Source of the DNA: an uncultured Candidatus Saccharibacteria bacterium | GTDB taxonomy: Bacteria; Patescibacteriota; Minisyncoccia; Phycocordibacterales; Zambryskibacteraceae | Length of the DNA stretch: 64,000 nucleotides | NCBI GenBank assembly: GCA_964618905.1 | Contig: CAZUDK010000002.1 | Coordinates: forward strand, 482-64,481 | Direction: 5' to 3' | Shown here: positions 3,996 to 41,955 of the stretch, one piece after another | Numbering within the stretch: the first letter of the stretch is position 1 | Layout: every line of letters begins with the position of its first letter | Notes under the pieces: generated by a model | Databases searched by the model: none | What the model saw: the letters and a program-made list of their open reading frames with translations, nothing else | Told to the model about the DNA's origin: nothing | Program-made: the position numbers and the translations under genes

Positions 3996-4002
3996 TTTTT
4001 AA

Positions 4003-4281: not shown

Positions 4282-4282
4282 T

Positions 4283-16647: not shown

Positions 16648-16708
16648 TTAATGCCAGAAACTATACAAAAAAATTAAATATTTGTCGAAATAGAAACACC
16701 TCCTGCTG

Positions 16709-16894
16709 CTATTCAGATTTAACCTTATGATAATTTTTCCATCCGAAAGTATAGAAAAGAGTTCCAAACAGCAGTGTTATTGAGAGGGCATCAAGAATAT
16801 CGTTGTAAGTGCCATTGGCATAAAATGCGAAGAATATAGCAAAGGCCCAGAGAGTTATAAGTTGTTCTTTAGTTATGTTGTAAAAATTTTTCAT
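16709..16894 (-). CDS. Small hypothetical membrane protein (61 aa, 2 TM)
   Basis: Hydrophobic helices; no recognisable family. Confidence 0.4.
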   Translation of the reverse strand: MKNFYNITKEQLITLWAFAIFFAFYANGTYNDILDALSITLLFGTLFYTFGWKNYHKVKSE

Positions 16895-16895
16895 T

Positions 16896-17300: not shown

Positions 17301-17304
17301 ACTT

Positions 17305-18677: not shown

Positions 18678-18743
18678 GGGCCTAGCTTACAGCTTCTTGC
18701 TGTTAGAGGCCAGTTTTAATTCGAATTTTAGATTTAGCCCTCA

Positions 18744-19319
18744 TTAACCTTTAGAAGCCAAAACTTTAAGAGCATGCTTAACTCTCTCTGAAGCGCCTTC
18801 GATTTCTTGAGAAATTTCTTTAAGTGCATCACGGGCATCTTTCTCTGTGTATCCAAGAGATACCAAGGCTTCGAGAGCATCACTCTCTGCACGCAAATCT
18901 CCAACGGATTCGTTTTCTTTCAAGGCAAGCTTGTCTCGGAGCTCGATAACTATTTTTTCTGCATTCTTTTTACCTATGCCTGAAACTCGGGTCAGATATG
19001 AAGTATCTCCGCTTGAGACTGCTTGTCGTAGCATGACAGGGGTAGCGACATTTAATATGCCAAGAGCTGTGCGCGGGCCAATGCCTGAAATGGTTATCAA
19101 AAGTTCAAATACATCTAAATGCTCTTTGTCTGAAAAGCCGAAAAGATCGAGTGAATTTTCTCTCACCACCTGATGTGTCCATAGGAATATGGAGTTGCCT
19201 ATGTCAGCATCTAAAGTTAAGTCTGTAGGTGTATGCACTTTGTAGCCAACTCCCCCCACATCCACTATAAGAGAATGCATGTCTTTGTATCTAACTGTAC
19301 CTGAAAGGCTTGATATCAT
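18744..19319 (-). CDS. ruvA: Holliday junction DNA helicase RuvA
   Basis: Trimmed to the internal Met (MISSLSGTV...); OB fold and HhH (ISGIGPRTA), C-terminal domain III. Confidence 0.85.
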   Translation of the reverse strand: MISSLSGTVRYKDMHSLIVDVGGVGYKVHTPTDLTLDADIGNSIFLWTHQVVRENSLDLFGFSDKEHLDVFELLITISGIGPRTALGILNVATPVMLRQAVSSGDTSYLTRVSGIGKKNAEKIVIELRDKLALKENESVGDLRAESDALEALVSLGYTEKDARDALKEISQEIEGASERVKHALKVLASKG

Positions 19320-19345
19320 GTTGTAATTAGTGTAGCATTCTCCGC

Positions 19346-19609
19346 ATGCCAATAACACGAGGAGCTAAGAAGGCCTACAGAGCGTCTCTGACAAAGCGCT
19401 CTTTCAATCTTGCCAGAAAGGCCAATGTCTCCAAAGAAGTTAAATCTCTAAAGAAGCTGGTAGCTGCCGGCGATAAGAAAGGTGCTGAGGAACAGATGAG
19501 GTCTGTACAGAAGGCACTCGACAAGGCAGCCAAGGCAAACACATTAGACAAGAATACTGCCTCTCGCAGGAAGTCTCGCTTGGTCAAAATTATTAAGAAA
19601 ATCTCCTAG
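19346..19609 (+). CDS. rpsT: 30S ribosomal protein S20
   Basis: 87 aa basic, AKKAYRASLTKRSFN... Confidence 0.9.
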   Translation: MPITRGAKKAYRASLTKRSFNLARKANVSKEVKSLKKLVAAGDKKGAEEQMRSVQKALDKAAKANTLDKNTASRRKSRLVKIIKKIS

Positions 19610-19681
19610 TGCTCCCGGCAGGAATCGAACCTGCATCGTATCTTCCGCAAAGATATATCCTATCCATTGAACGACGGGAGC
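19610..19681 (-). tRNA. tRNA-Arg (anticodon read as GCG)
   Basis: Acceptor GCTCCCG/CGGGAGC, D-loop AATGGATAG (Arg-like), anticodon stem TATCT/AGATA, loop TTGCGGA, T-loop TTCGATT; abuts the rpsT stop. Confidence 0.7.
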
Positions 19682-19764
19682 GTTTAACGCCGTTTAGATT
19701 ACCACATAGCAATTATAACCCCAAGCACCGCCACAGCCGATGAGTTTCTTGCTAGAATATTTTA

Positions 19765-21555: not shown

Positions 21556-22022
21556 AACCCCAAATATTCCAAGAATTTTTCTACCCAAGGAAGCTCGTGA
21601 TATTCCTCTTCAAGAAATTTTGATAAGTTCGAGTGCAGCTTATCTACATCTGTTTTGTCTCCCAAAGGAACTACTATAAGAGGCATAAAAAATTTTTTTG
21701 ATTTCAAAAGTATTTTTGGATGTGAGTGCTCTTCATCTATCCAGAAGGATTGCAGGGTCGAATATGGGTAGAATATGTTTTCTCTAGTAATACCTTTTTC
21801 TGTAACTGAGACATCTATGATCTCGGGCTCGTGATTAAGAAAGAGGGTCAGAGAAAAAACGCTTATCAATATTAAGATGGCAAGTATGATGTTGCCAAAA
21901 ATGATAAGGGTGATGGCTATGGCTGTGACGATTATGCCCATGGCCCAGAACCAGTCGGCGCTGCGCTCCTTGTGTTCATATTCCGGCGCACCCCATTCCA
22001 TTTTGAAGGATTCTCTGCGCAT
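21552..22022 (-). CDS. Hypothetical membrane protein (2 TM + soluble domain; possibly a bacterial PH-like DUF304 type)
   Basis: 156 aa; two N-terminal hydrophobic helices. Confidence 0.35.
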   Translation of the reverse strand: MRRESFKMEWGAPEYEHKERSADWFWAMGIIVTAIAITLIIFGNIILAILILISVFSLTLFLNHEPEIIDVSVTEKGITRENIFYPYSTLQSFWIDEEHSHPKILLKSKKFFMPLIVVPLGDKTDVDKLHSNLSKFLEEEYHELPWVEKFLEYLGF

Positions 22023-22044
22023 GTTTGTAAAATAATTTTAGCAC

Positions 22045-22090
22045 ATAAAAAACAACACCCTGCCAGATTGCACAGGCTGGCAGGGTGTTT
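22045..22090 (-). terminator. Rho-independent terminator (caccctgccag...ctggcagggtg, then T-run on the minus strand)
   Basis: 11-bp stem; the minus-strand reading ends in TTGTTTTTT. Confidence 0.7.
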
Positions 22091-22104
22091 GACGGGAGCT
22101 GCCG

Positions 22105-22536
22105 TCAGGCCGCAGGAGGCAGGGGATGAAGCTCGGCAGTGAGCTGATCTTCGAATTTCTCAATGGCGGACAGCATCGATTCGATTCTCTTCATGGTTGT
22201 GAGTGGGGGTGAATTGCGGTGCATGCCGTCGATATAGAACTTGAGATCCTTGAGAGCAACTATGGCAGTGCCATTTCCTGGAGAAGTGTCTGTGAAGGAC
22301 TGGATAATTCCATCGAGCTGCCCGTCATACATCTTGGCAGTCTCGTCTTCGAGCCAGTGCCGGGTTTGCCGTTCGTATTGAGGATAAGCAACAAGCTCCT
22401 CGCGAACCTTCACCAATGCTTTCTTCAGAGCAGCGATGTCATTCCCGATTTGTCGCAGAATCTTCACCTGCCTGTTCCTTTTGGCGCGCTCGAAGGAGAT
22501 AGGCACAGAATTGCTGACGCGCATAGCTGCCTCCAA
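22105..22536 (-). CDS. Hypothetical protein, GC-rich orphan gene
   Basis: 143 aa (likely start MRVSN...); about 50-57% GC against about 40% nearby; sits next to tRNA-Ser. Confidence 0.4.
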   Translation of the reverse strand: MEAAMRVSNSVPISFERAKRNRQVKILRQIGNDIAALKKALVKVREELVAYPQYERQTRHWLEDETAKMYDGQLDGIIQSFTDTSPGNGTAIVALKDLKFYIDGMHRNSPPLTTMKRIESMLSAIEKFEDQLTAELHPLPPAA

Positions 22537-22605
22537 TTCAAGGATTTAAGAAGAACGCGATGACTAATAAAATCATGCCACAACTCATCAGTAAAGGCTA
22601 ATGTT

Positions 22606-22693
22606 TGGCGGAGGGGGTGGGATTCGAACCCACGGTGCCTTGCGACACTCTTGTTTTCAAGACAAGTGCGATAGACCACTCTGCCACCCCTCC
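22606..22693 (-). tRNA. tRNA-Ser (anticodon TGA), CCA encoded
   Basis: GGAGGGG acceptor, anticodon loop CTTGAAA, long variable arm, T-loop TTCGAAT, 3' GCCA. Confidence 0.85.
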
Positions 22694-22733
22694 TGGTTTG
22701 AATATCAAAACACAAGAAATTTCTTAAAGCAAT

Positions 22734-22973
22734 CTATCTCTCATCTACCACTTCCACTTCGTATTTTCTAGCAACGAAGAAGTAATAAATTATTTCCAGT
22801 ATTCCAAGTGTGTTAAGTACCAAGATTGCAACAAACCAGTATCTTTGTCTCAAGCTGGCAGCTTTCCATAAAGCTAAACCTTTCCAGAAAAGTATCCATA
22901 ATACTAATCCAACAAGGACAATTGGGTGCATCCCAAACCAGTCAGCGGCGCTGTTTATAGATTCTGTAGTCAT
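22734..22973 (-). CDS. Small hypothetical membrane protein (79 aa, 2 TM)
   Basis: Hydrophobic; W/Y-rich. Confidence 0.4.
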   Translation of the reverse strand: MTTESINSAADWFGMHPIVLVGLVLWILFWKGLALWKAASLRQRYWFVAILVLNTLGILEIIYYFFVARKYEVEVVDER

Positions 22974-23032
22974 GTATTAATAATACATCAGAAAAGAAGC
23001 AGTTTCTAATAAAAACTGCTATATTCAAACAG

Positions 23033-23410
23033 ATGAGATTGATAGGAATAGATTACGGAGAGAAGCGGGTCGGCATAGCTTCTACGGATGAATCCGGAGA
23101 ATTTGCTTTGCCTAGGGAAGTTTTACCCAATGATGAAAATCTCTTTAAGAAAGTCTTGGATTTGATAGAGAAGGAAGGGGTTGAAGCTGCTGTCTTAGGT
23201 GAATCAAGGAATTTGGACGGCACGCCCAATCCCATAATGAAAAAAATTCTTGATTTCAAATCCGAGCTTGAAGAAGCTGGTGTAAAAGTTTTCTTGCATC
23301 CGGAAGTTTTCACAACCATGGAAGCACGCCAGCTTCAAGGGCAGACTGGTATGACAGATGCTTCTGCAGCGGCGCTAATACTTAAAAGTTTTATTGATTC
23401 AAACAAATGA
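23033..23410 (+). CDS. yqgF: Putative pre-16S rRNA nuclease YqgF/RuvX (RuvC-like)
   Basis: MRLIGIDYGEKRVGIA N-terminus. Confidence 0.8.
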   Translation: MRLIGIDYGEKRVGIASTDESGEFALPREVLPNDENLFKKVLDLIEKEGVEAAVLGESRNLDGTPNPIMKKILDFKSELEEAGVKVFLHPEVFTTMEARQLQGQTGMTDASAAALILKSFIDSNK

Positions 23411-23739
23411 CAATCTCTATAGATGATTTCAAAAAAGTTGAGATAAAAATCGGCAAGATACTTTTTGTCGAACCGATAGAAAAGAGCGACAAGCTCCTCA
23501 AACTCTCAGTAGATTTTGCAGAAGGGGAGCCTCGCCAAGTACTCTCCGGTATTAAAAAATATTTTTCGCATCCTGAAGATCTTGCCGGTGTGAAATGCGC
23601 TTTCGCTACAAACCTCGAGCCAAGGCAGATGATGGGTATGGAAAGTCAGGCAATGCTCCTTGCTGCCTCTTCAGAAGATGGCGCTTTTTCTGTTTTGAGA
23701 GTTTCAGATGAGATTCCTGCCGGTACTAAGATAAACTAA
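23407..23739 (+). CDS. Standalone tRNA-binding domain protein (CsaA/Trbp111/MetRS C-terminal-like OB fold)
   Basis: 110 aa; FKKVEIKIGKIL...KLLKLSVDFAEGEPRQVLSGI pattern. Confidence 0.7.
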   Translation: MTISIDDFKKVEIKIGKILFVEPIEKSDKLLKLSVDFAEGEPRQVLSGIKKYFSHPEDLAGVKCAFATNLEPRQMMGMESQAMLLAASSEDGAFSVLRVSDEIPAGTKIN

Positions 23740-23745
23740 ATGTAG

Positions 23746-23829
23746 TGGGCACGAGAGGATTTGAACCTCCACCCCCTTGCGAGGACTGCGACCTGAACGC
23801 AGCGCGTCTACCAATTCCGCCACGTGCCC
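23746..23829 (-). tRNA. tRNA-Leu (anticodon CAG)
   Basis: GGGCACGTGGCGGAATTGGTAGACGCGCTGCGTTCAGGTCGCAG...; near-identical in its 5' half to E. coli tRNA-Leu(CAG); long variable arm. Confidence 0.85.
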
Positions 23830-23870
23830 GTGCAAAAAGAATACAATATGTGGTAATATCGTGCCATTCA

Positions 23871-23943
23871 GGGCGATTAGCTCAGTTGGTAGAGCAATCC
23901 GTTTACACCGGAAAGGTCGGGGGTTCAAGTCCCTCATCGCCCA
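23871..23943 (+). tRNA. tRNA-Val (anticodon TAC)
   Basis: GGGCGATTAGCTCAGTTGGTAGAGC...anticodon loop TTTACAC...GGTTCAAGTCCCTCATCGCCCA. Confidence 0.85.
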
Positions 23944-24172
23944 CAACGACTCGCGAGAAGAGCGAGCAAGCTCTTCGAGTGAAATGTCGTTTTGTAGCGA
24001 AGAGGTACTTGAAAGCCGGAGCGCGTCGGCGCGAGGCGGGGTCGAGCAAATTTTCAGCAGAAAATTATGCGTGACCAAGTCCCTCATCGCCCACCATGCT
24101 CCCTGTCGCTAAGGCGGCGTGAGCTGCACTCGGATATAATGAACGAGCCAGCTCCTTCATTAATCTTCGTTT
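23944..24172. repeat. Structured GC-rich spacer holding a 19-nt copy of the tRNA-Val 3' end (24076-24094) and repeat copy A (gcgtcggcg...aattttcagcagaaaattatgcgtg...gctccct)
   Basis: Exact 19-nt duplicate caagtccctcatcgcccac; hairpins gaagagc/gctcttc and aattttc-agca-gaaaatt; homologous to 55855-55950. Confidence 0.6.
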
Positions 24173-24244
24173 GCTCCCGTAGTTAAATGGATATAACGAC
24201 TCCCTTCTAAGGAGTAGTTCTAGGTTCGATTCCTGGCGGGAGCA
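24173..24244 (+). tRNA. tRNA-Arg (anticodon TCT)
   Basis: GCTCCCGTAGTTAAATGGATATAAC...anticodon loop CTTCTAA...GGTTCGATTCCTGGCGGGAGCA. Confidence 0.85.
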
Positions 24245-24245
24245 C

Positions 24246-24989
24246 ATGACTAATTTGGACTCCTACATTCTATACGAAGACGAACACATCCTTGTAATCA
24301 ACAAACCTGCTGGACTTGTAGTGCATCCGGATGGCGGGACAGAAGAGCCGAGCGTATCCGAGTGGTTTGCTCTAAAGTATCCGCAGTCCAAGAATGTAGG
24401 TGAGCCAATGAATGTCGGAAATGGAAAGATAATTGAGAGGCCGGGTGTAGTGCATCGGATAGATAGAGAAACCAGCGGAGTGCTTCTTCTTGCTAAAACT
24501 AATCAAGGTTTTGATGTACTAAAGAAGCAATTTCAAAACAGAGAGATAGAAAAGATTTATCATTTTTTTGTATATGGATTGGTAAAGGATGATTTCGGTA
24601 CAATCCGGCTCTCTATTGGCAGAAGTGCATCGAACTTCAAAAAGAAGTCTGCTGAAAAAGGCGCCAGAGGAGAAAAGAGGGAAGCGCTGACATATTTCAA
24701 GACTCTTAAAAGACTGCCTGAGGAAAAAGCTACGTTTGTTGAAGCAAAACCCAAGACCGGCAGGACGCATCAGATACGAGTGCATTTCAAAGCCATTCAT
24801 CACCCGCTTGTTGGAGACAAGTTATATGCTCCGAAGAAGCCTCTACTCCTTGGTTTTGACCGTTTGGCTCTGCATGCTCGTTCAGTATCTTTTATAAATG
24901 TCTCCGGCCAAGAAATTAAAGTGGAAGCCCCATATCCTGAGGATTTTCAGAATGCTCTCGACAAGGTTGAATATATTGTGTTAGATTAA
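24246..24989 (+). CDS. RluA-family pseudouridine synthase
   Basis: 247 aa; [16 protein letters not shown] catalytic Asp motif. Confidence 0.8.
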
Positions 24990-25435
24990 TGTCCACTATG
25001 AATAGAGTATTATCACCAGTAAAGATAGAAGACAGACAGAAAATCGACTTCCGAGCCGGAGACACAGTTCGCGTCTGGCAGAAAATCCAAGAAAAAGGAA
25101 AGACTCGCCTGCAGGCTTTTGAGGGTTTAGTGCTCGCTCGCAAGCATGGCAAGGAAGCAGGAGCTACCTTTACCGTGCGCAGAGTAAGTTCCGGCGTTGG
25201 AGTAGAAAAAGTTTTCCCGCTCTATTCTCCTATGATAGATAAAATAGAAGTTCTCAAGCGTTCAAAGGTTCGCCGATCCAAGCTTTATCACATCAGAGAA
25301 AAGGCTGCCAAGGATATCCGAAGACAAATGAGAAATATTCGATTGGCTAAAGACGAGCCGGAAGATGATGTCCTGGAGGCAGAAATTTCCGAAGCTCCAG
25401 AAGAGGCAGTTGAAGAAACTTCGGAGGAAAAGTAA
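24989..25435 (+). CDS. rplS: 50S ribosomal protein L19 with acidic C-terminal extension
   Basis: FRAGDTVRV...[12 protein letters not shown] core. Confidence 0.85.
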
Positions 25436-25472
25436 TATAAACTTGTCCTCTTTGGTAAATATATAAGGCTTT

Positions 25473-25555
25473 GCGCGGGTGTTGAAATTGGTAGACAAGC
25501 ATCCTTGAGGTGGATGTGCCCTTAGGGCGTGGAGGTTCAAGTCCTCTCCCGCGCA
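25473..25555 (+). tRNA. tRNA-Leu (anticodon GAG)
   Basis: GCGCGGG acceptor, D-loop AATTGGTAGAC, anticodon loop TTGAGGT, long variable arm. Confidence 0.8.
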
Positions 25556-25658
25556 CAAAAAACCGAGGGTTTTCGAGAAGTTCTAGTCCTCTACGTGACC
25601 AAGTCTTCTGATAATGATATAAAAGAATTCCCGCTAGGCTATAATTAGCTGGCAAGAT

Positions 25659-25731
25659 GGTGCCTATGGTGTAACGGTTAACACTCAAGTTTGTGGAACT
25701 TGCAATTCGGGTTCGATTCCCGGTAGGCACC
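25659..25731 (+). tRNA. tRNA-His (anticodon GTG) with encoded G-1
   Basis: G-1 pairs with discriminator C73; U8; D-stem GTGT/ACAC; anticodon loop TTGTGGA. Confidence 0.8.
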
Positions 25732-25735
25732 CAAG

Positions 25736-31238: not shown

Positions 31239-31784
31239 ATGGCTAAGCAAAAAATAGAAGAAGGAAGAAACTGGTACGTCATCCACACTTATGCAGGATA
31301 TGAAAATGCGGTGATGAGGAATCTCAAGCAGCGCATCGAGTCTCTTGGTATGGAAGACAAGATATTTAATGTCATAGTGCCTACGGAAAAGAAGATAAAG
31401 ATAAAGGGAGGCAAGAGGGTAGAGGAGGAAGAAAAGATTTACCCGGGCTACATCTTGGTAGATATGATAGTAACTGACGACTCGTGGTATGTGGTGCGAA
31501 ACACTCCTCGCGTAACCGGCTTCGTCGGCTCTGGTGTGTATCCGGTGCCTATAGACAAGAAGGAGGTAGATGCGCTCTTTGTTCGCATGAATGCAGACAA
31601 GCCGGCACACACTATCAATCTCCAGCAAGACGATGCGGTGCTTATTGTGGACGGGCCGTTTAAGGACCTTGAAGGCAAAGTTTCCGAGATAGACAACGAG
31701 CGCGGCAAGGTCAAAGTTCTGGTCAATATGTTCGGTCGCGAGACCCCAGTGGAGCTCGACCCGTTGCAGGTCAAGAAGATTTAA
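31239..31784 (+). CDS. nusG: Transcription termination/antitermination factor NusG
   Basis: NGN and KOW domains; WYVIHTYAGYENAV... Confidence 0.9.
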   Translation: MAKQKIEEGRNWYVIHTYAGYENAVMRNLKQRIESLGMEDKIFNVIVPTEKKIKIKGGKRVEEEEKIYPGYILVDMIVTDDSWYVVRNTPRVTGFVGSGVYPVPIDKKEVDALFVRMNADKPAHTINLQQDDAVLIVDGPFKDLEGKVSEIDNERGKVKVLVNMFGRETPVELDPLQVKKI

Positions 31785-31806: not shown

Positions 31807-32229
31807 ATGGCAAAAAAAGTAGTAAAAATTCTAAAGCTTCAGATTCCGGGAGGACAGGCAGTACCCGGCCAACAGCTTGGTCCGGTGCTCGGAGGTGCCG
31901 GCATTCAGATAGGTGAATTCGTAAAGAGATTTAACGACGAGACCAGGGATCGCATGGGCGAAACTGTGCCTGTGGTTGTAGAGGTTTATGATGACAGAAG
32001 CTATGGCATGACCTACAAGGTTGAGCCAGCTTCCGCGCTGATCCTCAAGGCAGTCGGCAAGCCAAAAGGTTCCGGCAAGAATGTAACTTCCAAAGTAGGC
32101 TCTATCTCCAAGTCTCAGCTCAAGGAAATTGCCGAGAAGAAGATGCCCGATCTCAATGCTAATGATGTAGAGGGTGCCATGCAGATTATCGCTGGCACTG
32201 CCCGAAGCATGGGTGTCGAGGTAAAATAA
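31807..32229 (+). CDS. rplK: 50S ribosomal protein L11
   Basis: KLQIPGGQA...PPVGPALG-like core. Confidence 0.9.
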   Translation: MAKKVVKILKLQIPGGQAVPGQQLGPVLGGAGIQIGEFVKRFNDETRDRMGETVPVVVEVYDDRSYGMTYKVEPASALILKAVGKPKGSGKNVTSKVGSISKSQLKEIAEKKMPDLNANDVEGAMQIIAGTARSMGVEVK

Positions 32230-32393: not shown

Positions 32394-33020
32394 ATGGAAG
32401 CCGAACTGGTGAGAAGGATCATTCAGGAGGCATCTCAGTCCACCTTCCTGACACCTCGAGAGAGGTATACGGATGATGTGAGACAGGCTGTGGACTTCGC
32501 CGAGAGGGCAAGGCAGGTTGGGTGTCGAGTAGTTTTGACTCAAGGTACGTTCGACCTCACACATATAGGCCACGCAAGGTATGTAAGGGAAGCCAAAAAT
32601 CAAGGTCATGTCTTGATAGTTGGAGTGGACGATGATGCAAAAGCACGCAAGCGCAAGGGTGAAAATCGCCCTGTTGTTCCTCTAGAGGAACGCGCTGAGA
32701 TGCTTACGCACTTGAGGTATGTCGATCTTGTTGTGCTGAAACGCGCTGAGGACGAAAAGTGGTATCTTATCAAGAGCATTCATCCGGATGTTCTAATAGC
32801 TGTTGAGGGAACGTACGACGAGGAGGAAGTCATTGCTCTCTCCAAATTATGTGGAGATATTGTTGTCCTTCCTCGGCAAGCCGAAACGAGTACAAGCGCG
32901 AAAGTTCGCAAGCTGGTGCTCGATGGAGCTGAGAATCTTACGCAGGAACTCGTCTCCAAGATACCGATTTTCGTGCATGAGATTTACGAGGGTCTCAAGA
33001 AGAATGGAACGGCATCATGA
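32394..33020 (+). CDS. Cytidylyltransferase-like nucleotidyltransferase (TagD/RfaE-II family, HxGH motif)
   Basis: GTFDLTHIGHARYVREAK...VGVDDD...LRYVD; first gene of the GC-rich island. Confidence 0.65.
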   Translation: MEAELVRRIIQEASQSTFLTPRERYTDDVRQAVDFAERARQVGCRVVLTQGTFDLTHIGHARYVREAKNQGHVLIVGVDDDAKARKRKGENRPVVPLEERAEMLTHLRYVDLVVLKRAEDEKWYLIKSIHPDVLIAVEGTYDEEEVIALSKLCGDIVVLPRQAETSTSAKVRKLVLDGAENLTQELVSKIPIFVHEIYEGLKKNGTAS

Positions 33021-33862
33021 AAGCGCTTATATGCTATATGCCGGTCCTGCATCAAGGATATCTTGACTTCATTGATAGACATCCTGATGCTGACGCCCTG
33101 CTTATCTTCGGACAAGACATCATTAATCGATTTGATTGGCTGAAGAGAAAGGAAATTAGAGCAGTCGATCCTCGCATAATGTCTTTATCTGTCTGCGCCG
33201 CAGTCCGCCCCGGGCTGAATGTGTATGTGATGGATGAGGCATATGCGCGTCTTCTTAAGGAGTCTGAGTCGAAGCTTGTCTTCGCAGATGAGGAAGAATC
33301 CCGTGAAGTTGCCCGGCAGATGTTTGCCGGATGCGATGTAAGCTTTGATAAAGTTTTTCTTCGATGGGATAGGACCAAAATTGCCGAAAGCGAAGTTGTT
33401 AACGGTTTTCCTATCGCTTCGGAAAGGGTCCACCAACTGTTCATGCAAGAAGCCTCGGAAGTCAGCCAGCAGAGTTCTGATTGGTGGCGGCAAGTGGGGG
33501 CAGTGCTTGTTTCCGGAGATAAGAAGATTGTCGCCTGCAACAGGCATATTCCTTCTGACCATACTCCTTATGTTGTGGGCGATCCTCGGAATCTGCTCAA
33601 GAGGGGGGTGGGGATAGAGATAACAAGCGTCCTCCATTCCGAAGCTGCAGTAATTGCTCAAGCAGCAAGAGAGGGTGTCTCCACGGTTGGAGCGCGCCTT
33701 TATGTGACCACCTTCCCTTGTCCTTACTGTGCCAATGTTCTCGCACACACAGGAATATCTGAGCTGTACTTCAGCTCTGGTTATTCTGTTCTGGACGGGG
33801 CTGGCCTGTTGGAACGTGCAGGCATCAAGATCTTTCAGGTCGTAGACCAACAGACCTCCTGA
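33017..33862 (+). CDS. dCMP/CMP deaminase-family protein with ~130-aa N-terminal extension
   Basis: HSEAAVI (HAE zinc motif) ...TFPCPYCAN (PCxxC); N-terminal domain unassigned. Confidence 0.7.
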   Translation: MKALICYMPVLHQGYLDFIDRHPDADALLIFGQDIINRFDWLKRKEIRAVDPRIMSLSVCAAVRPGLNVYVMDEAYARLLKESESKLVFADEEESREVARQMFAGCDVSFDKVFLRWDRTKIAESEVVNGFPIASERVHQLFMQEASEVSQQSSDWWRQVGAVLVSGDKKIVACNRHIPSDHTPYVVGDPRNLLKRGVGIEITSVLHSEAAVIAQAAREGVSTVGARLYVTTFPCPYCANVLAHTGISELYFSSGYSVLDGAGLLERAGIKIFQVVDQQTS

Positions 33863-33869
33863 AAATAAT

Positions 33870-34331
33870 TCAGGGGGTCTGTTTCTTTTTTTGAAATCCA
33901 ATACTTGTCTTTAGTTTTTCCCTTCCTTTACCTTCTTTTTCGCCAACTACAACATGAGCATGAAGGTGAGTGATGGTCGCCCCCGTATATTCTGGCTTGC
34001 CGAATCTCATAAGTAATATGCCGCCTTTCATTTTGAATTCTTTCTCAGCCCATTTGGTTAGATGTATCAATTCTTGTGCCGCTTTAGGACTAAGTTCGCT
34101 GACATTTTCTATGTGCTTTTTATGGACAAGCAATAAGTGCAATTTAGATCCTTCATACGGGTAGTCATTTTTAGTTATAAGCCATTTGTCTGTTTCTTTA
34201 ATAATAGGAGCGTCGTGATATTTTTTGAAGTATTTTGGACAGAATGGACATACGCCTTCCTTTTGTATTTCTACCATTTGTTTTCTTTGTGCTGGAACGC
34301 GAGCGTTGGATATATTCATCAATTTCTTCAT
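33870..34331 (-). CDS. HIT-family nucleotide hydrolase/transferase
   Basis: CPFCP and the histidine triad HLHAHVV; trimmed to the Met at MKKLMNIS. Confidence 0.7.
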   Translation of the reverse strand: MKKLMNISNARVPAQRKQMVEIQKEGVCPFCPKYFKKYHDAPIIKETDKWLITKNDYPYEGSKLHLLLVHKKHIENVSELSPKAAQELIHLTKWAEKEFKMKGGILLMRFGKPEYTGATITHLHAHVVVGEKEGKGREKLKTSIGFQKKKQTP

Positions 34332-34400: not shown

Positions 34401-34895
34401 TCATCGAATTCGCCTGTGTATCTCCCGTGTGAAGTCGAACTCGTTGCGTTTATCTGCTTGATGATTCATTGACCAGACAAGCCTCCACGTATCTTTATTC
34501 CATTCAGGAAAGAAAGTGTCTCCTTCGACTTCCGCATGAACGCGAGTCAGATAAAGCTCCTCAGCATGTGGTAGGGCAAGTGCGTAAACTTGTGCTCCGC
34601 CAATAATGAAAATATCTTCACGCTGAGACATTTTCAAAATCGGCTCCCACTCATGTACATAGGTTACGTTAGGCCGCTCATACGGAATGCACCTAGTCAA
34701 GACGATATTGTCCCTTTCGGGAAGAGGTTGGCCTAATTCGTACACTATACTGCGGAAGGTGTTGCTTCCCATCACTACTGGATGACCTTTAGTAATCCTC
34801 TTAAACCAGTGCAGGTCATCGCGGAGTCGCCATGGGGTGGTATTGTTCCTCCCGATAACTCCATTCTCTGCGACAGCAGCGATAATCTTGAGCAT
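34401..34895 (-). CDS. folA: Dihydrofolate reductase
   Basis: 164 aa; IAAVAENGVIG...PW...GHPVVMGSNTF...IIGGAQVY. Confidence 0.85.
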   Translation of the reverse strand: MLKIIAAVAENGVIGRNNTTPWRLRDDLHWFKRITKGHPVVMGSNTFRSIVYELGQPLPERDNIVLTRCIPYERPNVTYVHEWEPILKMSQREDIFIIGGAQVYALALPHAEELYLTRVHAEVEGDTFFPEWNKDTWRLVWSMNHQADKRNEFDFTREIHRRIR

Positions 34896-34906: not shown

Positions 34907-35806
34907 CTAGATGGCCACTGGGATACCCTTGATTCCCGGATGAGGCTTATAATCGGAAAGCTCGAAGTCATCCGGACGCATCTCGAAGATGTTTGTACTG
35001 TAGGTATTCAGCGTGAGTGTAGGAAGCTTGCGCGGCTCCCGCTTGAGCATCTCTTCCACGTACGGAATCTGGTCCACATAAATGTGGGCATCAGAGAAGC
35101 TGTGGATATACTTGTAGGGAATTGTTCCCGTGGCCCGAGCAAGTCCTAATAGAGCACCACCACCATACTGAATCATGTTCGCCGGTACTCCTACCGGAAA
35201 GTCAGCTGAACGCTGGAACATATGTAGCACGAGACGCATGCCAGGTAGGACACGGGCATGCATCCAGCCATGGCACGGAGCTACCACTGTCTTTTGCTGT
35301 TTGCCTCGTCCTCGCCCGATGTACTGGGGAATCCAGGGGGTCACGAAGTGGGTGCGAAGCTGGGGTTCATCGGTGATCTGCTCCACCAGATGTTGTATCT
35401 GGTTGAAAGGAGGACCTTCTCTGGTAGGGAAATTGTGGAAGGCTTCTCCATAAGCACCTAAGCCTCCGGTTCCCGTAGGAACACCGCGCTTCTGGCACTT
35501 TTTCTCAGTCCACCAATCTTTCCACCAGTTGCAGCCGAACTCCTCGAGTCCATCGAGAGAATTGACCCCATTAAAGAAAGCAAAAATCTCGCCCACTGCG
35601 GCTTTCCAAAACGGGATATTCCTCTCCGTGATGAGAGGAATGCCGTTCTCAAGAAGGAAGTGCATAGGCGGCGGAGCCATGTACGTTAGAGCAGGAACAC
35701 CTTGTTGGCTCTCTACTTCTTCTCCTTCTTCGAGAATGAGTCGGAGACAATCGCGATACTGCGTATCCGGCGTTCTCTCCTCGTACGGCTTGTAAGTGGG
35801 ATGCAT
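34907..35806 (-). CDS. Divergent thymidylate synthase-family enzyme (ThyA, or a ThyA-like pyrimidine hydroxymethylase)
   Basis: VAPCH nucleophile, QRSADFPVGVPANMIQY, C-terminal DYKPHPGIKGIPVAI match ThyA; regions equivalent to Arg21 and Arg126/127 diverge. Confidence 0.7.
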   Translation of the reverse strand: MHPTYKPYEERTPDTQYRDCLRLILEEGEEVESQQGVPALTYMAPPPMHFLLENGIPLITERNIPFWKAAVGEIFAFFNGVNSLDGLEEFGCNWWKDWWTEKKCQKRGVPTGTGGLGAYGEAFHNFPTREGPPFNQIQHLVEQITDEPQLRTHFVTPWIPQYIGRGRGKQQKTVVAPCHGWMHARVLPGMRLVLHMFQRSADFPVGVPANMIQYGGGALLGLARATGTIPYKYIHSFSDAHIYVDQIPYVEEMLKREPRKLPTLTLNTYSTNIFEMRPDDFELSDYKPHPGIKGIPVAI

Positions 35807-35917: not shown

Positions 35918-36340
35918 ATGATTCTAAAGGTTAAAAAACTACATCCAGAAGCTAAGCTGCCAATTTTCGCCCATCCCGGAGATGCCGGCATGGACCTCTT
36001 CGCATTTGAGGATGTGGAGGTCCCAAGCGGCCGGTCAGCAAAGATCAGAGTCGGAATATCTCTTGAAATACCAGAAGGATATGTTGGCTTATGCTGGGAT
36101 AAGAGCGGACTATCAATGAACCACGGCATAAAAGTTCTTGGTGGGGTGATTGACTCTGGCTTTAGGGGCGAACTCGTTGTGGCAGTATTCAATCTTGGGC
36201 CAGAAAACTATACTTTTCATAAAGGCGACAAGGTTATGCAAATACTGATTCAAAAGGTGGAAAATCCGGAAATTGTTGAAGCAGAGGAACTTTCTGATTC
36301 AGCACGCGGAGAAAATGGCTTTGGCAGCACAGGAAAATGA
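35918..36340 (+). CDS. dut: dUTP diphosphatase
   Basis: Trimmed to the Met at MILKVKK (RBS aaggaata); GDAGMDL, GVIDSGFRGEL motifs. Confidence 0.85.
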   Translation: MILKVKKLHPEAKLPIFAHPGDAGMDLFAFEDVEVPSGRSAKIRVGISLEIPEGYVGLCWDKSGLSMNHGIKVLGGVIDSGFRGELVVAVFNLGPENYTFHKGDKVMQILIQKVENPEIVEAEELSDSARGENGFGSTGK

Positions 36341-37911
36341 TTAAGCAGCAAATCGAAAATTCAGTTAAGAACGCACTCTCCGAACTTGGACTAGGGGATA
36401 TGAATTTTGTGGTGGAACATCCGGCTCGCATAGAGTTTGGAGACTACTCTACGAATGCGGGTATTATTACAGGCAAGGGTGAGGAGATTGCAGAATATTT
36501 GAAATCGAATCTTCCAAAGGAAGTTGAAAGAGTGGAACTAAAGGGCGGCTTCATCAATTTCTTTCTGTCTAAAGAATTTTTCAAAAAGAGCATTGGAGAA
36601 ATTATTAAAAATGGAGAAAGTTTTGGGAAGAATGACAATCTAGAAGGCCAGAAAACAATCATTGAGTACACAGACCCGAATCCATTCAAGGAATTCCATA
36701 TCGGGCATTTGATGTCTAATGCTGTCGGCGAAGCTGTTTCAAGAATCATTGAGTGGAATGGAGCAGAGGTTAAGAGAGCCTGCTACCAGGGTGATGTGGG
36801 TATGCATGTAGCCAAAGCTGTGTGGGGAATGATGAAAGGGGAGAAAGATCCGTATGCCGCAGGCAACAGGGCATATGAAGATGATGAAGATGCGAAGAAA
36901 GAAATACAGCGAATAAACAAAGAAATATATGAAGGCGGAGGAGATGTAAAAGACCTTTGGGAGAGAGGGCGTCAGGAAAGTTTAGATGCTTTTGAAAAAA
37001 TATATAAAAAACTTGGAACAAAGTTTGATTACTTTTTCTTTGAATCAGAGACAGGAAAGGTTGGCCAGAAAATCGTCGAGGAGAATATTGGCAAGGTGTT
37101 TGAAGAATCTGACGGAGCAGTTGTTTTCAAGGCGGAGAAATATGACCCAAAACTTCATACCCGCGTTTTCATAAATTCAGAAGGCTTGCCGACATACGAA
37201 GCTAAAGAGCTTGGACTTGCACAGGTTAAGCACGAAAAATATCCGTACGATAAATCCATTGTAGTAACTGGCAATGAAGTAGATGGTTACTTTAAGGTTT
37301 TGCTTGAAGCGATGAAGCAAGTTCTGCCGAAGCTTGCAGAGAAGACAGAACATATCTCTCACGGCATGCTGCGTTTGCCGACAGGTAAGATGTCCTCGCG
37401 CACTGGAGATGTCATTACTGCTGAAGAACTCTTAGAGCAGGTTAAGGAGAAGACAGAAGGCAATGAGGAGGTTGCTATAGGAGCTATCAAGTATATGATC
37501 CTGCGTCAGGAAATTGGCGGAAATATAATTTTCGATATGGAAAAGTCTGTTTCGACAGAAGGAGACTCCGGAGTATATTTGCAATATGCATATGCAAGGT
37601 CTTGTTCGATTCTGGAGAAGGCAAACGGGCAGGCAGACCCAGAAGGTGTGAGAGAGAATGTGCAGAAGGTGGAAAAACTTTTATACAGATTTCCGGAAGT
37701 GGTCGAGAGGGCTATGCACGGCTTCTCGCCGAATTTAGTTACAACATATCTGACAGAGCTTGCAGGTGCTTTTAATAATTTTTATGCGCATGAGCAGGTC
37801 ATCGGCGATTCGCCGGAGGCGCTTTACCGCTTGGCGGTGGTGGAGGCTTTCAATAAGGTGATGAAGAACGGATTAGAGGTCCTGGGTATTCCAGCTCCTG
37901 AGAGAATATAA
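36337..37911 (+). CDS. argS: Arginine--tRNA ligase
   Basis: 524 aa; HIGH (FHIGHLMSNA), YLQYAYARSCSIL signature, DALR anticodon-binding domain. Confidence 0.9.
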   Translation: MIKQQIENSVKNALSELGLGDMNFVVEHPARIEFGDYSTNAGIITGKGEEIAEYLKSNLPKEVERVELKGGFINFFLSKEFFKKSIGEIIKNGESFGKNDNLEGQKTIIEYTDPNPFKEFHIGHLMSNAVGEAVSRIIEWNGAEVKRACYQGDVGMHVAKAVWGMMKGEKDPYAAGNRAYEDDEDAKKEIQRINKEIYEGGGDVKDLWERGRQESLDAFEKIYKKLGTKFDYFFFESETGKVGQKIVEENIGKVFEESDGAVVFKAEKYDPKLHTRVFINSEGLPTYEAKELGLAQVKHEKYPYDKSIVVTGNEVDGYFKVLLEAMKQVLPKLAEKTEHISHGMLRLPTGKMSSRTGDVITAEELLEQVKEKTEGNEEVAIGAIKYMILRQEIGGNIIFDMEKSVSTEGDSGVYLQYAYARSCSILEKANGQADPEGVRENVQKVEKLLYRFPEVVERAMHGFSPNLVTTYLTELAGAFNNFYAHEQVIGDSPEALYRLAVVEAFNKVMKNGLEVLGIPAPERI

Positions 37912-37989: not shown

Positions 37990-38607
37990 ATGATCCTTAC
38001 CTTTAGTGGTCCATCCTGCGCAGGCAAGAGCACTATAATCAAGGCAGTATGCTGGCAGGACAAAAGCTTCCGAGTGCCGGTCTCATTCACCACTCGCCTC
38101 CTGATGGAAGGAGAGATAGAGGGGGATGACTACAATCATCGAACACGCGAGAGATTCGCTGATTTGGTAGGCGAGCGACATTTTGCAGAATGGGCAGAGC
38201 ATTTAGGGTATTTCTACGGTACCCCCAAGGATGCTATTGAAGAGATAATCAGTGCAGGGTATAACATTCTCATGGATCTCAACTGCAGTGGCGCCCGGCA
38301 AATCAAAATATTGTATCCGGATGCCGTGAGCTGCTTTATTCGTCCGCCGGACCTCGAAACGCTCGAGAGGCGCATAAGGAAAAGGCGGCGGGGAGAGAGT
38401 GAGGAAGACATCTGGAGAAGGCTGGCGATCGCCCGTAGCGAGATAGATCAGAGAGGGTGGTTCGATTACTGCATTACCAACGAAAAGTTGGAGGATGCGG
38501 TTGATGAAGTTCTTGCGGTCATCCAGAAGGTGCGGATTCGAGATGAACACGATGACATGGATGACTCTAGCAGAACGTCCCTGCCACGGATTCCTGGGTT
38601 CGTTTGA
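37990..38607 (+). CDS. Guanylate kinase-like nucleoside-monophosphate kinase
   Basis: P-loop GPSCAGKST, TTR...GE..G.DY; GC-rich (48-58%); acidic C-terminal tail. Confidence 0.65.
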   Translation: MILTFSGPSCAGKSTIIKAVCWQDKSFRVPVSFTTRLLMEGEIEGDDYNHRTRERFADLVGERHFAEWAEHLGYFYGTPKDAIEEIISAGYNILMDLNCSGARQIKILYPDAVSCFIRPPDLETLERRIRKRRRGESEEDIWRRLAIARSEIDQRGWFDYCITNEKLEDAVDEVLAVIQKVRIRDEHDDMDDSSRTSLPRIPGFV

Positions 38608-38700: not shown

Positions 38701-41700
38701 ATGAATGAAAAGTCTGACAGAGCCAAGAGGGAAGAGAAGATACTCTCTTTCTGGCAGGAAAAAAATATTTTCAAAAAAACTCTGGAGAAGGATGCTCCTA
38801 AGGGGGAATTTGTATTTTACGAAGGTCCGCCGACCGCAAACGGCCGGCCGGGCATTCACCACCTTGAAGCCCGTGCTTTCAAGGATGCTATCCCGCGATA
38901 CAAGACCATGCGCGGATATCATGTGCGCCGAAAGGCTGGCTGGGACACACATGGCTTGCCGGTAGAGCTTGAGGTTGAGAAACAGCTTGGCATAAGCTCA
39001 AAAAAACAAATTGAAGAGTATGGCATAGCCAAGTTCAATGAGGAGTGCAAGAAAAATGTCTGGAAGTATGTGGACGAATGGATAGACTTTACTAAGAGGA
39101 TAGGTTACTGGGTGGACTTTGACGATGCATACATTACTTACAAAAATCCGTACATAGAATCTGTCTGGAATGTGATCGCTCGTGCGGATGAAAGAGGTCT
39201 TCTATACAAGGATTATAAGGTGGTTCCGTGGTGTCCAAGGTGCGGTACTGCTCTTTCTTCACACGAGCTGGCGCAAGGATATGCAGATGTTAAAGATTTG
39301 TCTGTGTATGCAAAATTTAAAATTGTCGGATTCGATAACGCCTATTTCCTAGCATGGACTACTACACCATGGACTCTGCCGGGCAATGTCGCTCTGGCAG
39401 TCGGTGCAGACATCACATACGTTGAAGCTAAGGTTGGGGAAGATATCTTTGTCTTAGCTAAAGACAGGCTTTCAGTACTCGAAGAGTCATATGAGATAAT
39501 CGCTGAGCACAAGGGTTCGGAGATGGTCGGCATGGAGTACGAGCCTCTGTATCCTTTCCTTAAAGAAAATTATAAAGGCGAAGGCTTGGAGAAAGCATAT
39601 AAAGTTTACACAGCAGATTTTGTGAACACAGAAGATGGTACAGGCATTGTTCATACGGCTGTGATGTACGGCCAAGATGACTTTGCTCTTGGTACGAAAA
39701 TTGGCTTGCCAAAGTACCATTTAGTAGATGAATCCGGGCATTTTCTGCCAGAAGCAGGCTTCCTTGCAGGCAAGTTTGTAAAAGATGAAGAAACTGCCGT
39801 CGAGATCATTAAAGACTTGGCTCATAGAGGACTCTTCTTTAAGAAAGAGAAATATGAGCACTCGTATCCTCACTGTTGGAGGTGTAAGACGCCTCTTATC
39901 TACTATGCCCGAGATTCCTGGTATATCAGGATGTCTGAGCTCCGCGACAAGCTGGTAAGCGAAAACGAGAAAATAAATTGGGAGCCGAATTATATAAAAG
40001 AAGGCCGCTTCGGCGAGTGGCTTCGAGAGGTTAAAGATTGGGCGCTATCCCGTGAGCGCTACTGGGGCACGCCTTTGCCAGTATGGGAGTCCGAGACCAG
40101 TAAGAAAATCGTTGCCGGTTCCATAGAGACTCTTAAAAAGTATACAAAGAGATCTGACAACAAGTATTTTATGATGCGGCACGCTGAGGCCATGAGCAAC
40201 GCCAAGAATGTGCTCGATCCTCAAGGCGATCCGAACAATCATCTTACAGATAAGGGCAGAGCAGAGGCAGTCAGGACTTCAGAAGAACTGAAAGGCAAAG
40301 AAATAGAATTGATACTGACTTCTCCATTTATTCGCACTAAAGAGACAGCAGAGATAGTAAGGAAGGAACTAGGTTTGCCGAAAGAGAGTGTTGTGGTGGA
40401 TGATCGCTTGCACGAAGCCAATGAAAAAGACTTTAAGCTGGTGCGCAAGCGCCTGGGCGAATTCATTTACTGGCTAGACAAAAAATATTTGGGCAGAAAT
40501 ATTCTTATAGTGTCGCACGGAAATCCTCTCTGGGTTTTGGAGAGAATTTCAGACTGGAAAGACAGCGACAATTTCGAGGGGGATAAGATGCTTGCCACTG
40601 CTGAAGTTCGAGAGCTGAATTTTGCTCCCATGCCGCACAATGAAGATTATGAGCTTGATCTTCATAAGCCTTACATAGATGAAGTAGTGCTTGAGAAAGA
40701 CGGCGAAGAGTACAGGCGAACCAAGGAAGTCATGGATGTCTGGCTCGACTCAGGTTCAATGCCTTTCGCTCAGGACCATTATCCTTTCTCAGGCAAACTA
40801 ATGTATCCAGCAGACTTCATATCTGAAGCTATCGACCAGACACGCGGCTGGTTTTACACTCTGCATGCCGTTGGAATGATTATGGAGAGAGGTCATGCAT
40901 ACAACAATGTTATTTGCCTCGGCCACATACTTGATGCAGAAGGCAAGAAGATGTCTAAGTCTATCGGCAATGTGGTAAATCCGTGGGAGGCCATGGACAA
41001 ATACGGAGTGGATGTACTTCGCATGTGGATGTATTCGGTTAATCAGCCCGGAGAATCCAAGAACTTTGATGAACGCACTGTCGATGAGCTGAGCAAGCGA
41101 GTCTTTAATCTCTTAGACAACGTGTATGCGTTTTATGAAATGTACAAATTGCCGAATGATTCAAGCGAAGGAGATGGAGAAAAAGTTCATATTCTTGACA
41201 GGTGGATATTGGCTCGACTCAGCGAGTTGGTAGATTTCTCTTCTGAGATGCTGGATCAATATAAATTGCTTGAGCCAACGCGCGCCATGCGAGAGTTTAT
41301 TGATGATCTTTCTACGTGGTACTTGCGCCGCTCGAGAGATAGATTAAAAGAAGGGGATGCTGGCGCTAAGGAGACATTGCATCAAGTCCTTATTACTCTG
41401 TCTAAAATTTTAGCTCCTTTCGCTCCGTTTACGGCGGAAGAGTTGTATCGGAATCTTCGTGAGGAGGATGAACCAGAGAGTGTTCATCTTTGTGCCTGGC
41501 CTGAAGTGAAGCGTTCGCTCTTTTCTATGTTCAGAAAGGATGATTCTTCTAAAATTATTGAAGATATGAAGGAGGTGAGGAGGATTACAACCCTTGCCCT
41601 CAGTGAAAGGCAGAATGCGGGTATAAAAGTGCGTCAGCCGCTCGCTAAACTCGAAATTAAAAATTGGAAGCTTGGCAAAGAATATGAGGAAATCATCAAG

Positions 41701-41955
41701 GATGAGGTAAACGTCAAAGAAGTTTTAGAGAATCCTCAACTTGATACAGAGGTAAGACTCGATACCAGTATCACCCCCGAGCTTGAAGAAGAAGGAAAAA
41801 TGCGCGAAGTAATAAGGCGTATTCAGGATCTGCGCAAAGAAAAGAATCTGAATCCGGGCGAGACAATGGAGTATGATCTGCCGGAAGAAGAGAGAGAACT
41901 TTTTGCAAAATACAGAGAAGAAATAAAGAAAGCTACAAATATAGAATTAAAGTGA
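38701..41955 (+). CDS. ileS: Isoleucine--tRNA ligase with an inserted histidine-phosphatase (PGAM-like) domain
   Basis: 1084 aa; editing-domain TTTPWTLPGN, WCPRCGT, KMSKS, DVWLDSGS; inserted block YFMMRHAE...LTDKGRAEA...ILTSPFIRTKETAEIV...IVSHGN at about aa 490-620. Confidence 0.85.
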   Translation: MNEKSDRAKREEKILSFWQEKNIFKKTLEKDAPKGEFVFYEGPPTANGRPGIHHLEARAFKDAIPRYKTMRGYHVRRKAGWDTHGLPVELEVEKQLGISSKKQIEEYGIAKFNEECKKNVWKYVDEWIDFTKRIGYWVDFDDAYITYKNPYIESVWNVIARADERGLLYKDYKVVPWCPRCGTALSSHELAQGYADVKDLSVYAKFKIVGFDNAYFLAWTTTPWTLPGNVALAVGADITYVEAKVGEDIFVLAKDRLSVLEESYEIIAEHKGSEMVGMEYEPLYPFLKENYKGEGLEKAYKVYTADFVNTEDGTGIVHTAVMYGQDDFALGTKIGLPKYHLVDESGHFLPEAGFLAGKFVKDEETAVEIIKDLAHRGLFFKKEKYEHSYPHCWRCKTPLIYYARDSWYIRMSELRDKLVSENEKINWEPNYIKEGRFGEWLREVKDWALSRERYWGTPLPVWESETSKKIVAGSIETLKKYTKRSDNKYFMMRHAEAMSNAKNVLDPQGDPNNHLTDKGRAEAVRTSEELKGKEIELILTSPFIRTKETAEIVRKELGLPKESVVVDDRLHEANEKDFKLVRKRLGEFIYWLDKKYLGRNILIVSHGNPLWVLERISDWKDSDNFEGDKMLATAEVRELNFAPMPHNEDYELDLHKPYIDEVVLEKDGEEYRRTKEVMDVWLDSGSMPFAQDHYPFSGKLMYPADFISEAIDQTRGWFYTLHAVGMIMERGHAYNNVICLGHILDAEGKKMSKSIGNVVNPWEAMDKYGVDVLRMWMYSVNQPGESKNFDERTVDELSKRVFNLLDNVYAFYEMYKLPNDSSEGDGEKVHILDRWILARLSELVDFSSEMLDQYKLLEPTRAMREFIDDLSTWYLRRSRDRLKEGDAGAKETLHQVLITLSKILAPFAPFTAEELYRNLREEDEPESVHLCAWPEVKRSLFSMFRKDDSSKIIEDMKEVRRITTLALSERQNAGIKVRQPLAKLEIKNWKLGKEYEEIIKDEVNVKEVLENPQLDTEVRLDTSITPELEEEGKMREVIRRIQDLRKEKNLNPGETMEYDLPEEERELFAKYREEIKKATNIELK
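40160..40565 (+). other. In-frame histidine-phosphatase (phosphoglycerate-mutase/SixA-like) domain inside ileS
   Basis: RHAE (RHG), LTDKG..QA-type, SHG motifs in order; continuous reading frame. Confidence 0.7.

Follow-up and report, generated by a model that had tools for sequence, protein, structure and literature searches.

A probable thymidylate synthase that has lost two phosphate arginines

Few enzymes are as conserved or as well studied as thymidylate synthase (ThyA), which is also a drug target and whose four phosphate arginines are 'invariant' in textbooks. What, then, is encoded by a gene that retains the catalytic core of this enzyme and has replaced two of the four? The question is raised by an open reading frame (ORF) of an uncultured Candidatus Saccharibacteria bacterium (assembly GCA_964618905.1), found in a stretch of 64,000 nucleotides of contig CAZUDK010000002.1 (positions 482 to 64,481), which we refer to as the window. 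We propose that the ORF is a housekeeping thymidylate synthase of the Paceibacteria-type Patescibacteria (candidate phyla radiation, CPR), converting deoxyuridine monophosphate (dUMP) and 5,10-methylene-tetrahydrofolate to thymidine monophosphate (dTMP) and dihydrofolate (DHF), and we give this reading a probability of roughly 0.85. A first-pass annotation, made from the sequence alone, had already placed the ORF at its exact coordinates, leaving out its strand (minus), and had described a divergent ThyA-family enzyme with possibly altered substrate handling. The gene and its relevant segments are as follows.

34907..35806, minus strand: thyA, variant thymidylate synthase, 299 amino acids (aa), ATG start, AGGA-type ribosome-binding site
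35690..35710, minus strand: residues 33-39, SQQGVPA, the loop of E. coli D20-R21-T22-G23-T-G-T; Arg21 replaced by Gln34
35474..35512, minus strand: residues 99-111, TEKKCQKRGVPTG, insertion after Trp98 (W83 of E. coli), from the alignments
35348..35359, minus strand: residues 150-153, L-R-T-H; Arg151 is Arg126', kept; Thr152 stands at Arg127', replaced
35291..35332, minus strand: residues 159-172, IPQYIGRGRGKQQK, with a 7-residue Gly/Arg/Lys-rich insertion before the catalytic Cys
35273..35275, minus strand: codon of the catalytic nucleophile Cys178 (E. coli Cys146), invariant in all alignments

The family assignment is clear. PF00303 matches residues 16-294 with 187.1 bits (cutoff 24.3; E=4.4e-55), and the NCBIfam equivalog model TIGR03284 gives 142.6 bits (cutoff 108.35); the narrower PRK01827 sub-models all remain below their own cutoffs. 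The protein is a ThyA of full length. The top sequence match in the PDB is a bacterial ThyA (6auj, E=8e-33, ~30% identity). An AlphaFold2 model, computed from an input alignment of 63 sequences of the clade described below, is confident (predicted local distance difference test, pLDDT, 91.8; predicted template modeling score, pTM, 0.91). When it was compared with the PDB using Foldseek, the best 50 of 396 matches (E<=0.001) were all thymidylate synthases, and the fold is that of ThyA, with a template modeling score (TM) of 0.92 to E. coli ThyA, normalised to the latter. Neither a second ThyA nor a ThyX motif was found in the 64-kb window.

We mapped the active site residues in two ways, by aligning the protein with ThyA chains of the PDB (HMMER) and with E. 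coli ThyA (MAFFT; reference L001:2362-3156:-), and the two approaches agree. The catalytic residues are kept as Cys178 (C146), His179 (H147), Glu73 (E58) and Tyr119 (Y94), and the folate tryptophans as Trp95 (W80) and Trp98 (W83). The FQRSAD motif retains Arg199 (R166), Ser200 (S167) and Asp202 (D169), VPANMIQY retains Asn210 (N177), and His241 (H207), Tyr243 (Y209) and the C-terminal string DYKPHPGIKGIPVAI, with its closing PVAI tail, are also present. The motifs listed in the first-pass annotation (APCH with Cys178, FQRSAD, VPANMIQY and the C-terminus) are thus all there, and its description of a divergent ThyA-family enzyme with the whole catalytic core and an Asn at the uracil-specifying position was correct. 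All 120 close homologs share these residues for catalysis and for contacts to base, sugar and folate, as do at least 89% of 38 representatives of the wider clade.

The phosphate site is different. E. coli D20-R21-T22-G23 aligns to S33-Q34-Q35-G36, so that Arg21 is replaced by Gln34, as had been claimed. The alternative that the arginine is simply shifted finds no support: no conserved Arg occurs in the alignments within a few residues of the Arg21 or Arg127 positions. The RR dyad, which had been regarded as changed, is only half lost: S125-R126-R127-I128 aligns to L150-R151-T152-H153, with the Arg126 equivalent unshifted (Arg151) and Arg127 replaced by Thr152. Of the four arginines (Arg21, Arg126', Arg127' and Arg166), the protein therefore has Arg126' and Arg166 and lacks Arg21 and Arg127'. 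Further swaps with respect to E. coli ThyA are Lys48 to Arg62 and Thr47 to Glu61. A W/K-rich insertion that had been noted is in part the canonical I79-W80-D-E-W83 folate motif, seen here as NWWKDW; a real insert, TEKKCQKRGVP, follows it.

The two-arginine state defines a deep clade

The replacements are not a peculiarity of one genome. The nearest 120 homologs, 59-76% identical, come from metagenome-assembled genomes of Parcubacteria/Paceibacterota/Kaiserbacteria type. Among them Gln occupies position 21 in 114/120 and Thr position 127 in 116/120, and all 120 have both His at 128 and Arg126. Judged from these alignments, the conservation of the Q21/T127/H128 substitutions is far beyond chance. 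Apparent M166/K167 variants in four sequences of this set may reflect an alignment shift.

An exhaustive HMMER search against representatives at 50% identity yielded 6831 matches at E<=0.001, 72 of them at E<=1e-30. About 40 representatives at the same identity level combine a non-Arg residue at 21 with L-[RK]-T-H at 125-128, whereas canonical sequences in the same alignment have D-R-T-G and S-R-R. Thr at 127 is found in 92% of the wide clade versus 0% of canonical ThyA, and position 21 is variable (Q/T/P/A/V/I). Other residues conserved specifically in the clade, besides Thr152, are Arg11, Asp14, Glu61, Arg62 (100%), Ser118, Gly180 and Arg277. In neighbor-joining trees, 35 core clade members separated from 71 canonical representatives in 292 of 300 bootstraps, so the placement that had been suggested as a check puts the protein outside canonical bacterial ThyA. 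Neighbor-joining is crude, being based on distances, and the precise limits of the clade are unstable: the exact bipartition was recovered in only 11 of 200 bootstraps, with boundary sequences wandering. On average, identity is 0.39 among members of the clade, 0.43 among canonical ThyA sequences and 0.30 from one group to the other.

A motif scan of GTDB species genomes identified a relative in at least 378 genomes. Most are labeled as lineages of the Patescibacteria group; the rest are labeled 'uncultured bacterium' or otherwise (Saccharibacteria, Gammaproteobacteria, Methylococcaceae and others), and these other labels are probably automated mislabels. On this sequence evidence, the two-arginine ThyA is a deep, large and undescribed Patescibacteria clade rather than a private oddity. 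Our literature searches found no paper on a ThyA variant of the CPR, on a link between ThyA and HIT proteins or on the gene module in which both occur (see below). The clade-wide scope of the changes, like the HIT linkage and the insertion in the loop of the catalytic Cys, had been missed by the first-pass annotation.

The conservation also bears on the idea that the ORF is a decaying or non-catalytic relic. The loss of two residues deemed invariant is what a relic might display, but the ORF is intact, the gene arrangement of the operon is conserved, the AlphaFold2 model has high confidence, and the catalytic residues are invariant over hundreds of sequences with a mean identity of 39%; we consider a relic extremely unlikely.

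Some clade members, namely L091 6001-6918 (of the P0280/P0150 cluster) and P0138, carry Asp for Asn at 177 in the same context of DHFR, HIT and deaminase genes. These might methylate deoxycytidine monophosphate (dCMP), with deamination afterwards.

Loop insertions and relaxed constraint

Can the lost arginines have been compensated? Two insertions are candidates. The first follows Trp98; its true insert is ~10 residues long and lies at the site of the eukaryotic-type ThyA insert (alignments to 5by6/3kgb). It is conserved in the clade, and a K, a K and an R are invariant among close relatives. The second precedes the catalytic Cys, where the loop reads PWIPQYIGRGRGKQQKTVVAPCH in the window protein versus AWNVGELDKMALAPCH in the comparison. 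The loop from W133 to C146 has 21 residues in 23 of 38 clade representatives. E. coli and 38 of 71 canonical sequences have 14; a length of 27 in 26 others is possibly an alignment artefact. This insertion is the block of lowest confidence in the AlphaFold2 model (pLDDT 68). The protein is also 13 residues longer at its N-terminus and has a single additional residue ahead of the C-terminus.

In the narrow clade, both insertions contain invariant Lys/Arg residues. Nevertheless, both insertions occur alongside both classical arginines in one clade member (P0133), and because of this the proposal that the insertions serve as compensation is unproven. The Arg of the WIPQYxxR motif is present in only ~22 of 38 wide-clade representatives. 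Arg11, in the N-terminal extension, is 89% conserved and co-varies with Glu61/Arg62, and on helix A it would sit at the end opposite the Arg21 loop; we therefore judge its role to be probably structural. Arg21 is retained in four close homologs, and P0028-type sequences keep Arg21 only. Since no new Arg is universal, P0133 keeps both arginines and four close homologs keep Arg21, the pattern looks like relaxed constraint on the outer phosphate ligands Arg21 and Arg127', and not like a re-specialised site.

Single arginine losses were also seen outside the clade. The canonical-like representatives P0184, P0198, P0219, P0231, P0232, P0240, P0242, P0250, P0182, P0209, P0214 and P0230 have lost either Arg126 (S-S-R-H or S-A-R-H) or Arg127 (G or A). 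Given that several canonical-like groups lack one or the other, natural single losses are commoner than the literature states.

A conserved gene module around ThyA

The genes around thyA in the window are the following.

31239-31784, plus strand: NusG
31807-32229, plus strand: L11
32394-33020, plus strand: cytidylyltransferase-like protein (RfaE domain II/TagD-like; PF01467), with a 4-nt overlap with the deaminase gene
33017-33862, plus strand: protein with a dCMP deaminase domain at residues ~138-275 (PF00383; PDB 4p9c), convergent with the thyA operon
33870-34331, minus strand: HIT-family protein, 149-153 aa, with HLHAH (Pfam HIT/DcpS_C; Hint-like in the PDB)
34401-34895, minus strand: folA, dihydrofolate reductase (DHFR), 164 aa (PF00186, E=3e-53)
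35918-36340, plus strand: dUTPase (PF00692, E=7e-26), divergent from thyA across a 111-nt intergenic region
36337-37911, plus strand: arginyl-tRNA synthetase (ArgRS)
37990-38607, plus strand: Gmk
38701-41955, plus strand: isoleucyl-tRNA synthetase (IleRS), 1084 aa

The start of folA lies 11 nt past the thyA stop codon, with an AGGAGG ribosome-binding site inside the gap, and the HIT gene is third in the resulting thyA-folA-HIT operon. The HIT protein shows the motifs NxR..GxCPFC..YH..HLHAH and is Patescibacteria-specific. The nucleotidyltransferase-like protein most resembles RfaE domain II, TagD and ethanolamine-phosphate cytidylyltransferases (110 bits with TIGR02199, under its cutoff; PDB matches 3elb and 1coz). 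The N-terminal domain of the deaminase (~135 aa) is uncharacterised and has an HxGY motif, YMPVLHQGYLDF, reminiscent of HxGH.

Some further features of the window stand apart from this module. Horizontal gene transfer of thyA, considered on compositional grounds (GC content z=2.2), was rejected, as the L11, NusG and Gmk genes are alike in this respect. In the IleRS, a histidine-phosphatase (PF00300) stretch at residues 490-574 splits the halves of the catalytic domain, and likewise in L002, L004, L091 and L092. Eight tRNA genes (Lys, two Arg, Ser, two Leu, Val and His) are spread over ~9 kb (16574-25732).

We examined synteny in a sample of 80 related genome loci, with informative cases as denominators. 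HIT lies directly downstream of the clade ThyA on the same strand in 74 of 75 cases (47 as ThyA-HIT, 26 as ThyA-DHFR-HIT). Searching in the reverse direction, with the HIT family as query against metagenomes, we found a clade ThyA immediately upstream in 41 of 43 informative loci. In two lineages (P0152/P0282, where P0152 is HRH31222.1, and P0175) HIT is fused to the N-terminus of ThyA; one of the fusions has HLHGQ instead of HLHAH. A related locus is L090 6001-7395. The deaminase and the nucleotidyltransferase-like gene occur in 60 of 61 related loci, and in L088 ThyA, nucleotidyltransferase and deaminase form one same-strand operon. DHFR is found within 4 kb of ThyA in 40 of 55 loci, and serine hydroxymethyltransferase (SHMT) is divergently upstream in 44 of 66; with the thyA-folA operon of the window, ThyA is thus coupled to DHFR and SHMT as expected for a thymidylate synthase. 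Members only 39-48% identical keep the block despite unrelated flanks (L093). About half of the related loci have a protein of ~195-200 aa without Pfam match between HIT and the deaminase (L002 7512-8099; L006 7441-8049); this spacer gene is absent from the window.

SHMT, ThyA and DHFR constitute the classical thymidylate cycle. Coupling to DHFR implies, by established biochemistry, a reductive methylation that produces DHF. The strongest argument available for ordinary chemistry comes from L119, one of two loci where the module contains another ThyA. There (3903-4799, minus strand) the enzyme is canonical, with NRTG, DRR, a 14-residue loop and all four arginines, and shares 50% identity with E. 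coli ThyA but 30% with the window protein; the HIT, N-domain deaminase, nucleotidyltransferase and DHFR of this module are 41-46% identical to those of the window. In L171 (~1353-2190, minus strand) the same module has an intermediate ThyA with Pro at 21 and W-R-R-H. Both look like replacements of the thyA gene in situ. The variant and a canonical ThyA are interchangeable in this context, and since the L119 module holds a four-arginine enzyme, the variant would carry out the ordinary reaction on ordinary dUMP.

The same neighborhood may be read in another way. With the outer arginines gone, the 5' side of the substrate site would be open, and the substrate could be deoxyuridine diphosphate (dUDP), a dUMP-X made by the RfaE-II-like nucleotidyltransferase, or dUMP handed over by a HIT complex, with HIT releasing or supplying the monophosphate. 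The near-constant HIT adjacency in both search directions, the two fusions, the presence of the nucleotidyltransferase homolog and the HxGY N-domain deaminase in nearly all loci, and the single operon of L088 all fit such a scheme; HIT enzymes cleave nucleoside monophosphate-X (NMP-X) bonds, and no conserved substitute Arg was found. Nonetheless, the module also occurs with a four-arginine ThyA (L119) and with an RR ThyA lacking Arg21 (L171), so it does not need an open cage, and we downgraded the scheme on account of these two loci. The retention of both arginines in P0133 and the variability of position 21, which is not re-specialised, also speak against it, as do the dUTPase and dCMP-type deaminase of the cluster, which make plain dUMP, and the fact that all known ThyA-fold enzymes use a nucleoside monophosphate. 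Overall, we consider a non-standard substrate unlikely, and equally doubtful is a broader proposal in which ThyA, HIT, the RfaE-II-like nucleotidyltransferase and the N-domain deaminase form a Patescibacteria-specific complex or pathway for making thymidylate. Were this complex to exist, a partner would hold or substitute the 5'-phosphate (HIT-bound, or as an NDP-X carrier), and the outer ligands of ThyA would therefore be dispensable. The altered substrate handling suggested in the first-pass annotation is likewise disfavored by the thymidylate-cycle gene cluster and by the canonical ThyA of L119.

Comparison with known ThyA-fold enzymes

With canonical ThyA (E. coli, L. casei, human; EC 2.1.1.45), the window protein has in common the fold, the catalytic Cys, Glu58, Tyr94, His147, Asp169, Asn177, His207 and Tyr209, the folate Trp, the C-terminal tail, Arg166, Ser167 and Arg126', and the coupling to DHFR. 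It differs in being ~30% identical, in Arg21 to Gln and Arg127' to Thr, and in 7 extra residues in the Cys loop.

Are two arginines enough? In the VAAP-clade thymidylate synthases (Vibrio parahaemolyticus), a natural Gly stands at Arg127' and the enzyme is active, with a Km for dUMP of 27 uM; its authors described it as the first natural loss among the four arginines (PMC6005164). Replacement-set mutagenesis, as cited in the same paper, indicates that L. casei Arg179 tolerates Ala, Thr, Lys or Glu (PMC6005164). Given tolerance at both positions (PMC6005164), the four-arginine feature is typical of, and not strictly required for, activity. The VAAP case resembles ours in that a whole clade has naturally lost Arg127', with activity at a modestly raised Km. 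It is unlike ours in having Gly rather than Thr, Arg21 kept, a typical gammaproteobacterial ThyA and no HIT linkage; the window protein, with its Thr, belongs to a different deep clade. Among the Foldseek matches listed is L. casei R179T (PDB 1bo7), which bears the same Thr substitution at the Arg127' position. A double mutant of the L. casei enzyme, R23I/R179T, is altered at both positions changed in the window protein, with an uncharged residue likewise standing at that of Arg21, and is reportedly still active. These are laboratory point mutants in a canonical scaffold, whereas the state of the window protein is natural and ancient, and accompanied by loop insertions.

Hydroxymethylases are also of this fold, and a resemblance to phage dUMP and dCMP hydroxymethylases had been suggested for the window protein. 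It does not hold for the dCMP hydroxymethylase gp42 of T4, which shares the ThyA fold and a non-Arg residue (Lys) at the Arg21 position, but gives a BLASTP E-value of 0.73, keeps DSRR, has Asp at 177 and is devoid of the C-terminal tail; the window protein has Asn210 and the PVAI tail. In the cytidine monophosphate (CMP) hydroxymethylases MilA and BcmA, Lys replaces Arg126', Ala replaces Ser167 and Asp replaces Asn177 (PMC5175136). They too have the ThyA fold, and changes in their phosphate and sugar sites alter substrate choice (PMC5175136); here, the window protein has Arg151, Ser200 and Asn210.

In favor of a dUMP hydroxymethylase of the SPO1 phage type, or another C5-modifying paralogue, are Asn177, which is common to ThyA and dUMP hydroxymethylases (PMC5175136), and an identity to characterised ThyA of only ~30%. 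Such an enzyme is however highly unlikely for this ORF, which lies in a cellular housekeeping locus between ribosomal-protein/NusG and aminoacyl-tRNA synthetase genes and is linked translationally to DHFR, required only if DHF is made. The protein retains Trp80/Trp83, Tyr94 and the closing tail at its C-terminus, it exceeds the TIGR03284 equivalog cutoff, a canonical ThyA stands in its place in L119, and we saw no further thymidylate synthase in the window. PHROGs pools synthases and hydroxymethylases in phrog_160 ('thymidylate synthase') and cannot separate them. A Bacillus phage SBSphiJ2 match (H3), considered as a dUMP hydroxymethylase reference, was discarded because it is a canonical DRTG/DSRR ThyA.

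A proposed mechanism and its implications

We therefore return to housekeeping dTMP synthesis. In the mechanism that we propose, Cys178 would attack C6 of dUMP, Asn210 would read the uracil, and His241/Tyr243 would hold the 3'-OH. Glu73, Tyr119 and His179 would serve the proton transfers, and Trp95, Trp98 and the C-terminal PVAI tail would close over the folate for hydride transfer. The phosphate would be held by the remaining classical ligands only, Arg199 (Arg166), Ser200 and Arg151' (Arg126'), the outer, mutation-tolerant arginines having given way to Gln34, at a position variable in the clade, and to the conserved Thr152'. Thr152/His153 or the loop insertion may compensate for them. This two-arginine architecture is inherited throughout the clade together with the longer, basic and flexible Cys loop and the other extensions. 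DHF would be recycled by the co-transcribed DHFR, and the neighboring dUTPase and dCMP deaminase would supply dUMP.

Several points weigh against this proposal. Two of four 'invariant' phosphate ligands are gone, and the affinity for dUMP may be low or may depend on some further factor. No compensating Arg is conserved across the wide clade. Textbook dTMP synthesis has no place for HIT, although this protein is a near-obligate partner and is twice fused to ThyA. Finally, the replacement in L119 is one case, along with the one intermediate type of L171. Even so, the two-arginine ThyA is genuine and clade-wide, and it is almost certainly functional and housekeeping.

An entire radiation, comprising hundreds of species, thus appears to use a ThyA without two textbook arginines. 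The clade offers a natural experiment on what part of the phosphate cage ThyA requires and on how loop insertions may compensate for its loss, and residue-based rules for recognizing functional ThyA would wrongly reject it. HIT and the pair of nucleotidyltransferase and deaminase suggest that these salvage-dependent organisms have a deoxynucleotide metabolism that is in part uncharacterised.

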